A stretch of 64,000 nt of DNA from Nitrospirota bacterium (lineage in GTDB: Bacteria > Nitrospirota > UBA9217). Shown one piece after another: positions 1,975 through 11,894 of this stretch (position 1 is its first letter; every line of letters starts with the position of its first letter). The position numbers and the translations under genes were made by a program. The stretch lies in contig CAVVOB010000012.1 in NCBI GenBank assembly GCA_963749655.1, forward strand, positions 160,001 through 224,000, given 5' to 3'. Under the pieces are notes generated by a model. That model made no database searches. It was given only the letters and a program-made list of their open reading frames with translations, and was not told the origin of the DNA.

Positions 1975-2811
1975 ATGACCGATGACCTGATGAAAAACGG
2001 CGCTGCTCCGACCTGAGCGCCCTCGGGCGGCGCTGGAAGCTGCCGCTTGGATTTTGCCAAACTATCACCTGCCCCGGTTCCTGATATCGTTGAGATCAGA
2101 ACAACCATCAGGAACAAATATTCCGAGGTGTCCGTATCAGCAGCAGGAAAGTTCCTCTATCCCACGGGCAGGGAAGGCGCAAAAGCATTGGGCTACGACG
2201 CCGCTGTCCTGGAACGAGCTCCGGAGGGATTTTTCGAATCCTTCTGCGGCGTCGGCAACCCGTTCACTCTGGGGCCGATTCGGTCCGGCGATTCGGTGCT
2301 CGATGTCGGCTGCGGAGCAGGCTTCGACCTTTTTGTCGCTAGCCGGCTGGTGGGGGAAAGCGGCCGCGTCGTGGGCATTGATCTGACTGACGAGATGGCG
2401 GCGCGAGCCAAAGAGAACCTCGCCTCCGCAGACGCCGCGAACGTTGAAATCAGAGTAGTCGATTCGGAAATCATTCCCTCTACTGACGGCTCTTTTGATG
2501 TCGTGATCTCGAACGGCGTCATCAATCTTTCCCCCCGCAAGGAAACGACCTTCGGTGAAATATTCCGCGTGCTGAAATCAGGGGGCAGGCTGCAATTCGC
2601 CGATGTGGTCGTGGAAAACGATCTGCCCGCGCATCTGGCCGGAAGCGCCGAAGCCTGGTCCCAATGAATAGGCGGCACGGTCCCGGTCCGGGACCAGATC
2701 AGGCTGATGGAAGGGGCCGGCTTCGTCAACGTCGAATTCGCCGGTCTGACCGGCTTCCGCACATCGCAGTACACGGTCGGCGCCCTGTTCCGGGCGCGCA
2801 GGCCGGGGTGA
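1975..2811 (+). CDS. ArsM-like SAM-dependent methyltransferase, predicted selenoprotein with two UGA (Sec) codons
   Basis: GGGAGA RBS then ATG 1975 in frame with ORF 2047-2667; in-frame TGA at 2014 and 2665; SFCGVGNP, VLDVGCGAG and DVVISNGVINL motifs; after 2665 the frame continues IGGTVPVRDQIRLMEGAGF... to TGA 2809-2811. Confidence 0.85.
2027..2046 (+). promoter_or_regulatory. Putative SECIS hairpin for UGA 2014
   Basis: GCGGC-GCT-GGA-AGC-T-GCCGC; stem starts 10 nt after the UGA, G-containing apical loop. Confidence 0.55.
2679..2695 (+). promoter_or_regulatory. Putative SECIS hairpin for UGA 2665
   Basis: GGTCCCGG-T-CCGGGACC; stem starts 11 nt after the UGA with a GGUC-type apex, as in E. 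coli fdhF SECIS geometry. Confidence 0.75.
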
Positions 2812-5288: not shown

Positions 5289-5304
5289 AACGAAGAAAGC
5301 AGGT

Positions 5305-5383
5305 AACCACAGATGAACACGGATAAACACGGATAACAGCGAAGTTCTTTCCCTTGTGGTCTCAACCGTGTTCATCCGTGGTT
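5305..5383. repeat. 10-bp-unit inverted repeat element (same family as 2883)
   Basis: AACCACAGATGAACACGGATAAACACGGAT ... CCGTGTTCATCCGTGGTT. Confidence 0.85.
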
Positions 5384-5413
5384 CCAACTGTTTTGAATCG
5401 GAGGTGATCGATC

Positions 5414-6394: not shown

Positions 6395-6910
6395 ATGAAA
6401 TACAGTATTTTGATCGTAATGGCCTTTCTTCTGCCTGTTTTAGCGGAAAGCGGGACAGTGGTAAATGCCAAAGCACCCGGCTTCTCCCTGCCGGACCAGC
6501 GCGATAATCAGATCACCCTGAGCAAGCTCGAGGGAAGAGTCGTTGTCCTGGTGGCAAGCGATAAGGAAGGTATGAAGCTGAATCCTGCGTGGCGGAAGGC
6601 CATCGCCGACCGCTACGGGGACCGGGTTTTGAGGCAGGGGGTCGCAGACGTCAGAAAGGTCCCTTTCTTTCTGAAAGGATCGTACAAACGGGATTTTCAA
6701 AAGGACCCTGAAAGCATCATTCTCGACTGGAAGGGTGAGCTATTCACGGCCTTTGGTCTCAGGGAAAATGTGTCCAATATCGTTCTCATCGACAAAAAAG
6801 GATATGTGCGGTATCTGCATTCCGGAGGCGCCGAGCAAGGCGCTGTCGATGATCTGTTCAAAGAAATCGACCTGTCTCTTGCATCGCGGGAGACCGGGTC
6901 CGGGAGGTGA
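6395..6910 (+). CDS. Exported redoxin-fold / YtfJ-like protein lacking Cys
   Basis: Signal peptide, APGFSLPDQ, IILDWKG, IVLIDKKG. Confidence 0.7.
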   Translation: MKYSILIVMAFLLPVLAESGTVVNAKAPGFSLPDQRDNQITLSKLEGRVVVLVASDKEGMKLNPAWRKAIADRYGDRVLRQGVADVRKVPFFLKGSYKRDFQKDPESIILDWKGELFTAFGLRENVSNIVLIDKKGYVRYLHSGGAEQGAVDDLFKEIDLSLASRETGSGR

Positions 6911-10034: not shown

Positions 10035-10153
10035 CTGTAGCTGATCGACCTCTTTTGCGTTCCTTTTCTCTGTATCGCAATTCTTCTTGACCATTATCGT
10101 CGGCGTGGTATCATGGGGACTCTGGCGGTCTGAAAATCAGCAGGAGGAACATC

Positions 10154-10787
10154 ATGAAACCCGAGAGCCGTACCGATTTCGACAAGCTGGCGGCGCAGTG
10201 GGACCAGAACCCGGTGCCGGTCAGGATCGCGCGCAGCGTGGGCGATGCGATCGTCCGCGAAGTCAACCCCGCTTCGCGCCTATGGACGCCGTCGACTTCG
10301 GCTGCGGCACAGGCCTTGTCACGATGCGGATCCAACCGCTGGTCAGGACGATCACCGGCGTGGACAGTTCGCAGGGAATGCTCGACAAGCTTCAGGACAA
10401 GTTCAAGCAGGCCGCTGTCACGAACGGCCGCACCCAACTCGTGGATTTCGAAAAAGGCCAGCGGGTGCAGGGCGCCTACGACCTCGTGGTAAGCAGCATG
10501 ACGCTGCATCACGTCCGGGACACGGAAGCGGTGATCCGGCACTGGTACGAACTGATCCGTCCGACGGGCACTCTTGCCTTTGCCGACCTCGACAGCGAGG
10601 ACGGGTCGTTCCACAGCGATAATACCGGCGTGTTCCACAGCGGTTTCGATCGGAAGACGCTTATAGAAGTTCTCGCACAGATCGGGTTCCGCGATGTTCG
10701 CGATGCGACCGCTGCCTCAATCACGAAAGATGTCGAGGGCCGGGGGACGCGTGAATACACCGTGTTCCTGATCACGGCGGAAAATAA
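10154..10787 (+). CDS. Class I SAM-dependent methyltransferase (frameshifted near 10280 and at the 3' end)
   Basis: AGGAGG RBS, ATG 10154; FDKLAAQWD then other frame DFGCGTG, SSMTLHHV, EDGSFH; likely stop TAA 10785. Confidence 0.8.
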
Positions 10788-10797
10788 TCTCCTCTTT

Positions 10798-11894
10798 ATG
10801 ACGGATATATCCGCAACTCCCGAAACCATCATTTCCCAATTCACTATCCCTGGCACGCTCGTCAAAACCGGACGCTACGGTTCCGGTCTGATCAACGACA
10901 CCTATCTCTGCGAGTTCAATGACAACCCTGCGCGCAGATACATCCTTCAGCGCATCAATACTTCGGTGTTCAAACATCCCGAAGAGGTCATGGAAAACGT
11001 GCAGATCGTGACGTCTCATATCATCGACCGATTGCGGAGCGAGGGAGTCGCCGATCCTTTTGCTGTAACACCCGCGCTCATCACCACGCGGGCCGCCGGT
11101 CGTACTTTCGCGACAAGGACGGGTCCTACTGGCGGATGTATCATTACCTCGAGAACGGCATGGTCCGCGACACGGTCCTTGATGAGCGCCACGCCTCCGA
11201 AGTGGGAAGAGGGCTCGGCAGGTTTCAGGCTCTTGTTGCCGACCTTTCACCCGAACGGCTGCACGATACGCTGCCGGGGTTCCACCACACGCAGCGATAT
11301 CTCGCTGAGTATGACGAGGCGCTGAAGGCCGATGCGCTGCATCGCGCGGGCTCAGTGATTGCGGAGCGTGAGTTCGTGGAAGAGCGGCGGCCGCTGGCAG
11401 CGGCGTTAACCGCAGTCATGGAATCGGGCGTGGTTCCCATCCGGATCGTGCATAACGACCCGAAGGTGAACAACATCATGGTGCGCATCGACACGGGCGA
11501 AGCACTATGCATGCTTGACCTCGATACGGTAAAGCCCGGGATCGTGCACTTCGATTTCGGCGACTGCGTCCGCTCCGCCGCGAACCCCGCGGGCGAGGAC
11601 GCTCCCGATCTTGACCGCGTTGTGTTCGACCTTTCGCTTTTTAAGGCCATCACGCGCGGTTATCTGAGGGAGGCGGCTGCTTTTCTTACCAAGAAGGAGA
11701 TCGAGCTGCTTCCGCTCTCCGTGAAGGTGATTACCTTCGAGCTGGGAATCCGCTTTCTTGCCGATTATCTGCGGGGTGACACCTACTTCAAAACGCGCTA
11801 TCCCGAGCACAACCTGCACCGCAGCCGGGTTCAGTTCAAGCTCCTCGCGGGCATTGAACGATCCGTCGACACCGCCGCTTCCTCCATTCCTTAA
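10798..11894 (+). CDS. Aminoglycoside phosphotransferase / N-acetylhexosamine 1-kinase-like (frameshift near 11095)
   Basis: GSGLINDT, YILQRIN, HNDPKVNN and LDLDTV motifs across two frames. Confidence 0.85.

Follow-up and report, generated by a model that had tools for sequence, protein, structure and literature searches.

The locus considered here raises the question of where its gene really begins and ends. The window, meaning the whole 64,000-nucleotide stretch of the Nitrospirota bacterium contig CAVVOB010000012.1 that was analysed, contains a table-11 open reading frame (ORF) of 206 aa that runs from TTG 2047 to TGA 2665-2667 and ends in ...AWSQ. The original prediction was that this stop conceals a longer, ArsM-like methyltransferase with two selenocysteine (Sec) residues. 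Translation confirms that the frame stays open, going on past TGA 2665-2667 as IGGTVPVRDQIRLMEGAGF... up to TGA 2809-2811. When TGA is read through, window 1975-2811 (+ strand) is a single gene for 278 residues whose codons 14 and 231 are in-frame TGA, and the in-frame ATG 1975 and its GGGAGA ribosome-binding site are present as described. The best explanation, to which we assign a probability of about 70%, is a two-Sec methyltransferase of the ArsM fold, 278 residues long, in which Sec14 would sit on a mobile arm and act as a second selenol. The reading frame is defined by the following features.

1975-2811, + strand: complete coding sequence, 278 codons plus stop, with UGA14 and UGA231 read as putative Sec codons (translation, orthologue alignment, Pfam, fold).
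1964-1969, + strand: Shine-Dalgarno-like GGGAGA, 5 nt ahead of ATG 1975 (read directly in the sequence).
2014-2016, + strand: predicted first Sec codon, U14, in the motif P-x-U-x-P-x-G-G of the N-terminal arm (TGA in 24 of 24 orthologous loci).
2665-2667, + strand: predicted second Sec codon, U231, in the motif W-S-Q-U-I-G-G at the ArsM Cys224 position (alignment to 5evj and 5eg5; TGA in 24 of 24 loci).
2809-2811, + strand: true stop codon, TGA (orthologues stop at the equivalent place).

The first check proposed for this locus was to see what homologues carry at the two UGA positions. The 64 genomes searched in six frames, with TGA read as U, all belong to the order of the window and represent one family and 19 genera. 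Orthologues were recovered in 23 other genomes from nine genera, at 56-75% identity and aligned over residues 1-278. TGA stands at both sites in all 24 loci, the window's own genome included, and Cys homologues were found for the second site only. All share an N-terminal plan of M, 10-13 residues and P/S-x-U-x-P-x-G/S-G-x-G, together with a second site of the form A-E-A-W-S-Q-U-I-G-G. The N-terminal Sec, initially rated the less certain of the two, is conserved to the same extent as the C-terminal Sec, and conservation is seen beyond both UGAs, contrary to the possibility that homologues start at 2047 or end at 2667.

Comparison of the starts and stops of these loci bears on whether the first UGA is translated. 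A start codon lies 11-14 codons 5' of the first TGA in 22 of the 24 loci (exactly 13 in 17), and the equivalent orthologue starts usually have a purine-rich stretch upstream. The two loci without that start spacing are a fused form, L030, in which the arm is internal to a longer ORF behind a TsoC-like domain, and a degraded copy, L039. For half of the loci (12 of 24), the earliest in-frame ATG, GTG or TTG to follow the first TGA already lies inside the conserved domain, and in eight of those 12 it is 56-96 codons away from that TGA. Because no usable start lies between that TGA and the conserved domain, the proteins of these 12 loci need read-through of the first UGA. The spacing between the two Sec residues ranges from 206 to 230 residues, and the frame from the first UGA to the domain is open in all 24 loci. 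At the other end, the stop falls 45-49 residues after the second Sec in 23 of the 24 orthologues. TGA 2809 was also considered as an additional Sec codon and was ruled out, since 13 of 24 orthologues have TAA or TAG there and no conservation extends beyond it.

Further homologues and reads were compared at the same positions. All 13 full-length metagenome homologues have W at both Sec columns, which we read as TGA translated under a TGA = W code. No RNA run was listed with the sequence, and four other DNA runs contained small shares of it (0.09-0.13 of sampled words). Contigs of two of them (X1 and X4, from relatives about 96% identical) keep 2665-2667 unchanged, and no contig from the four runs spans 2014. 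A Cys counterpart in the Sec231 column is present in the ArsM structures, in a paralogue from the window's own genome and in L061, a Cys form. A search with the arm alone (residues 1-40) gave two candidates, neither of which scored. A profile search of 1.84 billion representative proteins gave 98,354 matches at E <= 0.001. Only P0143, among the top 150, has an alignment that begins at profile position 1; its residue in the Sec14 column is Leu, but it resembles a frameshifted fragment.

Degraded and partial copies were also seen among the relatives. L039 (G037:C1:578117-578881) looks degraded: it lacks a start codon, stops early and has a 6-nt gap in hairpin 1, described below. A 62-residue fragment containing TGA and TAG is found on a separate contig of that genome (G037:C9:150684-150869). 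Another genome has, some 2 kb away from its full gene, a further and incomplete copy (G050:C3:655966-656382, - strand) that corresponds to residues 140-278, with 59% identity and one TGA.

The presence of Sec machinery was a further check proposed for this genome, and selA, selB, selD and tRNA-Sec were all found (611, 367.5, 355.5 and 62.8 bits, every one above its cut-off). selA and selB are adjacent, and selD carries an in-frame TGA and is itself of the Sec type. TGA terminates 29 of the 38 long ORFs of the window, and thus the code is not reassigned. About 3 kb from selD (G000:C21:1685-2611, - strand) is a TsoC-like ORF with one TGA (G000:C21:5663-5866, - strand), which at 28 bits is below the cut-off.

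Bacterial Sec codons are expected to be followed by a selenocysteine insertion sequence (SECIS) hairpin. A perfect hairpin 11 nt after the second UGA, and another at a nearly equal offset from the first, had been described, and both are confirmed at the positions below.

2027-2046, + strand: SECIS-like hairpin 1, 10 nt 3' of UGA14, with GG in the loop and a stem encoding G-G-A-G-S-C-R (comparative pairing).
2679-2695, + strand: SECIS-like hairpin 2, 11 nt 3' of UGA231, 6 bp, loop GGUCC (comparative pairing, compensatory changes).

Hairpin 2 has a perfect 6-bp stem, GGUCCC/GGGACC. Across 23 distinct sequences, 99.3% of its cells are paired, compared with at most 74.6% in slid controls. Four cells show double changes (GC to AU in three, CG to UA in one), a score that none of 500 shuffles reached, and the orthologues have an 11-nt spacer and the loop GGUCN. 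Hairpin 1 is GC-rich (GCGGCGC, loop UGGAA, GC-U-GCCGC). Among orthologues its spacer is 10-11 nt, 21-24 of 24 sequences retain its core C-G-G-C/G-C-C-G and its loop always has GG. In two analyses, 82% of its cells were paired versus at most 64% or 74% when slid, and its upper part changes register between subgroups. TTG 2047, where the table-11 ORF starts, is within the stem of hairpin 1. A gathering-threshold Rfam scan of the whole window gave no match, which carries no weight because a bacterial SECIS match is not expected there. By comparative criteria, the view that both UGAs behave as Sec codons is supported. Alignment of the relatives shows a frame in which two UGAs are apparently read as Sec, each with a hairpin of its own, and a third TGA acts as the stop.

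Gene callers routinely cut selenoprotein genes short, and this locus had been expected to lose both its ends. The public gene call for the window protein (P0004) is 179 aa long at 99% identity, or 64% of the read-through product, and most other database relatives are truncations of 193-216 residues. Since the public call covers only 179 of 278 residues, automatic calling does miss both ends.

The read-through product was then compared with known methyltransferases. In Pfam it is a class-I S-adenosylmethionine (SAM) methyltransferase (Methyltransf_31 at 2.4e-32; also Methyltransf_25/11). Its nearest solved structures by sequence are As(III) methyltransferases, and the top 12 Foldseek matches of an AlphaFold2 model (mean predicted local distance difference test score, pLDDT, 86.2) are ArsM or AS3MT. 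Sec231 aligns with the Cys of G-E-C-L-x-G, which is Cys224 of CmArsM, and the second UGA therefore occupies the catalytic Cys position that had been proposed for it. Sec at this position is of a kind already known. Two further codons of the core are informative in the alignment.

2245-2247, + strand: codon of Cys91 (F-C-G-V-G-N-P), family-invariant, two residues before the Cys72 position (Val93) (alignment).
2515-2517, + strand: codon of Gly181 (S-N-G-V-I-N-L), which is Cys174 in canonical ArsM (alignment).

According to the section of PMC5552862 that sets out its ArsM screen, at least three of four conserved Cys (44, 72, 174 and 224 of CmArsM) are counted as diagnostic. In the window protein, Cys72 of the canonical G-C-G-x-P is Val93, and alignment to the ArsM structures placed no Cys in the Cys44 region. 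All Sec-type relatives seen have Gly at the Cys174 position. In the window protein, position 224 alone is kept, as Sec. The paralogue in the same genome has SSCGCS, GCGNP, SNCVINL and RCVGG and is 43% identical to the window protein. It lies at G000:C16 = L151:5866-6699 (- strand), and about 660 bp away on the same strand is a C-GCAxxG-C-C family protein (TIGR01909, 72 bits; L151:4739-5203). The window protein thus has an ArsM scaffold but is not a canonical ArsM, because only one of the four Cys is kept, the score is below the NF008823 cut-off, a canonical paralogue is present and ars context is lacking. The arsenic assignment is weak. As part of the best explanation, the gene is probably a specialised paralogue rather than the cell's ordinary ArsM.

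Double selenoproteins with this core are represented in NCBIfam by three 'exception' models, ArsM/AhpD (NF041537), ArsM/DUF2284 (NF041536) and UXPK-star (NF047649), plus MduS. A comparison with such models was suggested at the outset. It matched the core, but no model's cut-off was reached (NF041537, 293.9 bits against 510; NF047649, 280.6 against 460; NF041536, 268 against 575). The related-family profiles start near window residue 29. The NF041537 and NF041536 matches cover core residues 37-277 and stop at about position 249 of 345 and 459, respectively, with the extra C-terminal domains unmatched. MduS (NF045649, cut-off 380) was not among the best 25 families for the window protein and scored 36.4 bits for the relative P0123. 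ArsM/AhpD members above the cut-off were found in none of 301 genomes from the phylum of the window; four of 401 genomes of another phylum have one, and all four of these true AhpD-type genes start at the core, without an N-terminal arm. Two genes over the UXPK-star cut-off (L175 and L178, 544 and 503.8 bits) also start at the core with no N-terminal arm. Both carry their second Sec about 35 residues past the core, in C-x-P-G-G-x-U-x-P-K-stop.

A maximum-likelihood tree was built from 42 cores, with L030, L031 and L058 dropped by a motif filter and L039 excluded as a likely pseudogene. A branch (85/91, not starred) has all 24 arm-bearing rows to one side of it, where they adjoin three arm-less single-Sec Nitrospirota sequences, and they are split from the AhpD/UXPK-star group at 97/94. 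L063 is on a very long branch. Within the arm-bearing family, the window's own genus forms two well-separated subclades (99/100), a pattern in the sequences that suggests transfer or old paralogy within the group.

The position of the N-terminal arm in the window is as follows.

1975-2070, + strand: region of the predicted disordered N-terminal arm, residues 1-32 (pLDDT < 50).

In the AlphaFold2 model, residues 1-32 have pLDDT < 50 and the core > 90, and the arm is predicted to be flexible. Its P-x-U-x-P core lies 5' of the hairpin 1 stem and is conserved in the window's order. The same motif is present in four loci of other groups, three from 'delta proteobacterium' metagenome-assembled genomes (MAGs; L052, L057 and L058) and one from a Desulfotalea MAG (L063). 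Arm-less single-Sec relatives also exist. In L030:683-1756 (- strand) and L031:1495-2586 (- strand), the methyltransferase is fused in frame after a TsoC-like domain of about 85 residues (NDPxGxRU). This domain scores 40-41 bits against NF045708, the NEPxGxxU selenoprotein model, for which the cut-off is 45. By its sequence, the L030/L031 fusion would carry three Sec.

Under the two-Sec explanation, Sec231, probably with Cys91, would hold a soft substrate beside SAM, and the arm would swing into the active site, bringing Sec14 as a mobile second selenol. There, Sec14 might complete the coordination of a soft, As(III)-like metalloid with Sec231 and Cys91. Alternatively, it might form and resolve an Se-Se or Se-S bond with Sec231 or Cys91 during turnover. 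The arm would then serve in metalloid binding or as a redox shuttle. In canonical ArsM, the job proposed here for the arm is done by N-terminal cysteines, and the C-terminal tail of UXPK-star presumably does the same job. The function of the arm and the substrate of the enzyme are inferred. A broader and decidedly tentative proposal concerns ArsM-like selenoenzymes of anaerobes in general, in which a swinging terminal selenol might form a diselenide or selenenylsulfide with the active-site Sec. The arm could have been invented or relocated at either terminus, the chemistry and probably the substrate would be distinct from four-Cys arsenite methylation, and the TsoC-like domain might be a dedicated reductant or substrate carrier.

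Several observations weigh against this explanation. Taken as single sequences, the 56-57-nt folds of the two hairpins are no better than shuffles (z = -0.52 and -0.36), and the covariation of hairpin 1 is weak, with 25-27 of 500 shuffles as high. Because neither hairpin folds better than shuffles by itself, the case for Sec insertion rests on comparison with relatives. A Cys-for-Sec homologue of the arm was not found in the search with region 1-40 or in the top 150 of the profile search, of which eight were read, and as a result the usual Cys/Sec pairing is seen for Sec231 only. The G-G-x-G-x-C-R peptide after Sec14 is encoded by the same bases as hairpin 1, and part of the arm motif may be an RNA constraint. 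For the U-x8-C arm that was originally described, Sec14 is conserved but the partner Cys is doubtful. The pair is uncertain because the UGC codon lies in the 3' arm of the SECIS-like stem and the Cys is absent in four of the 24 orthologues; in L036, L043 and L044 it is replaced by Arg, Val and Ser, with the stem still kept, and the fourth is the degraded copy L039. The model places the arm nowhere, and its contact with the active site is a proposal. As for arsenic, Cys174 is Gly and Cys72 is Val. The NF008823 score of 200.4 bits is under the 263-bit cut-off, and the canonical four-Cys ArsM paralogue elsewhere in the genome reaches 314.3 bits against the same model. There are no ars genes in the window. 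The comparison of neighbourhoods covered the window, 20 loci of relatives (with flanks of at most 6 kb on either side, as far as the contig reached) and four from other phyla. It found no conserved neighbour across 24 loci.

Some of these points would fit equally with other readings of the locus. Both Sec may be real and the substrate something other than arsenite, such as a Se, Te, Sb or S compound, with 'ArsM-like' describing the fold only. This is a possibility that we take seriously but do not favour. It would account for the low NF008823 score, the retention of one canonical Cys position in four, the four-Cys ArsM in the same genome, the lack of ars gene context or a conserved neighbour, and Gly at the Cys174 position in all Sec-type relatives seen. 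However, the closest structures, whether ranked by sequence or by fold, all belong to As(III) methyltransferases, and selenols are strong As(III) binders. Table 1 of PMC13188914 also includes a Sec-containing ArsM among its experimentally verified entries. It is rather unlikely that both Sec are inserted with Sec14 non-catalytic, serving as a selenium-dependent translation gate or as a metal-sensing or docking tail. The P-x-U-x-P motif, which lies 5' of the stem, is conserved nonetheless, in other phyla too. The existence of arm-less single-Sec relatives marks the arm as an added and maintained feature, and the U-x-P selenol of the sibling UXPK-star family, placed at the opposite terminus, cannot gate translation of its enzyme. 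Such a role would nevertheless agree with the near coincidence of the downstream peptide with hairpin 1, a partner Cys that is dispensable in four of 24 loci, the failure to find a Cys form of the arm and the disorder of the arm in the model.

The remaining alternatives deny that the first UGA, or either UGA, encodes Sec. UGA 2014 might end a 13-codon leader ORF, its hairpin regulating a gene that starts at TTG 2047, in which case only UGA 2665 would be Sec. Such a TTG does exist, the NCBIfam profiles of related families start near residue 29 and the covariation of hairpin 1 is slight. This arrangement is nonetheless improbable, as TTG 2047 is itself part of the hairpin stem, no in-frame start separates the first UGA from the conserved domain in 12 of 24 orthologues, and the frame from the first UGA to that domain is open in every locus despite a Sec1-Sec2 spacing of 206-230 residues. 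The arm is, in addition, internal to the fused ORF of L030. That the gene is a pseudogene, or its TGAs mutations or assembly mistakes, is barely credible: one orthologue (L039 of G037) does look degraded, but 23 other genomes have both TGAs, flanked on either side by sequence under purifying conservation, and TGA 2665 is kept in contigs of two other runs. The two-Sec methyltransferase with a mobile arm is therefore retained as the preferred reading.

The surroundings of the gene were also recorded. Its neighbours in the window are a LytS/LytTR two-component pair, a MacB-type ATP-binding cassette (ABC) exporter, a short-chain dehydrogenase/reductase (SDR), and peroxiredoxin-like and LolA-like proteins. 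The largest neighbour cluster shared among the loci compared, the gene itself and antisense shadow ORFs aside, is a generic ABC ATPase in six loci. One further feature immediately follows the stop.

2824-2850, + strand: hairpin GTTCTAT/ATAGAAC just 3' of the stop, a putative terminator or stabiliser (z = -2.95).

The z value is that of the fold of 2809-2865 versus shuffles, and no U-run is seen after the hairpin. Intergenic clusters of CACGGAT/ATCCGTG in both orientations lie at 2885-2965 and at about 5290-5400 and resemble dispersed repeats. The peroxiredoxin-like ORF at 6395-6907 (+ strand) matches AhpC-TSA at residues 23-72 only and Redoxin at 107-153 only, with the middle unmatched. A 412-codon ORF at 10087-11325 (+ strand), which overlaps the ORF at 11136-11894, has a SAM-methyltransferase domain in its first half; its second half seemingly runs into an unrelated reading, which may reflect a frameshift or a fusion.

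Parts of this arrangement have precedents. In Table 1 of PMC13188914, a Sec-containing arsenite methyltransferase is entered with experimental verification (Fomenko et al. 2007), alongside double-selenoprotein variants including UXPK-star (from Haft & Tolstoy 2025) and an AhpD-type example with three Sec. An N-terminal Sec in ArsM-like proteins is not described in the literature searched, which included that table and the searched parts of PMC9312934, PMC13326102 and PMC12013277, and mention in Haft & Tolstoy 2025 is possible. The Sec14 site is likewise absent from the selenoprotein catalogues compared, as far as these were searched. A Sec site for which no Cys counterpart has been found so far is unusual among selenoprotein families. 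In surveys of arsenic cycling, such genes are scored as 'arsM' by homology, though three of the four defining Cys are missing or displaced.

Comparison with known systems places the family more precisely. Canonical ArsM and AS3MT enzymes (CmArsM, 4fr0/4fs8; CrArsM, 5evj; human AS3MT, 8xt7) have the same fold and SAM-binding motifs as the window protein, which in contrast has Val at Cys72, Gly at Cys174, Sec at Cys224 and no equivalent of Cys44. The Sec-containing arsenite methyltransferase (NF008823/PRK11873 type, 'UxxG') has Sec at the C-terminal catalytic Cys, as here. It is listed with one Sec, whereas the window protein has a second, N-terminal one. ArsM/AhpD and ArsM/DUF2284 give the best hidden Markov model (HMM) matches over the core, but the window protein has neither an AhpD nor a DUF2284 domain. 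UXPK-star shares F-C-G-V-G-N-P-F, S-N-G (Gly at the Cys174 position) and W-x-Q-U-I-G-G with the window protein, and both families have a terminal extension with U-x-P near G-G and a Cys. This extension is C-terminal in UXPK-star and N-terminal (M-x12-U-x-P-x-G-G) in the window protein, whose C-terminus is plain (...FRARRPG-stop) and lacks U-x-P-K-stop, and the two form separate clades in the tree. In thioredoxin reductase, the C-terminal G-C-U-G arm is a flexible Sec peptide moving between a buried centre and the exterior; its fold and chemistry are unrelated, and it may serve as an analogy for a mobile Sec arm only. The likeness to the C-terminal U-x-P tail of UXPK-star provides a concrete, testable idea about two-selenium methyltransferases, and we read the window family as a sibling in which the mobile selenol has moved to the N-terminus.

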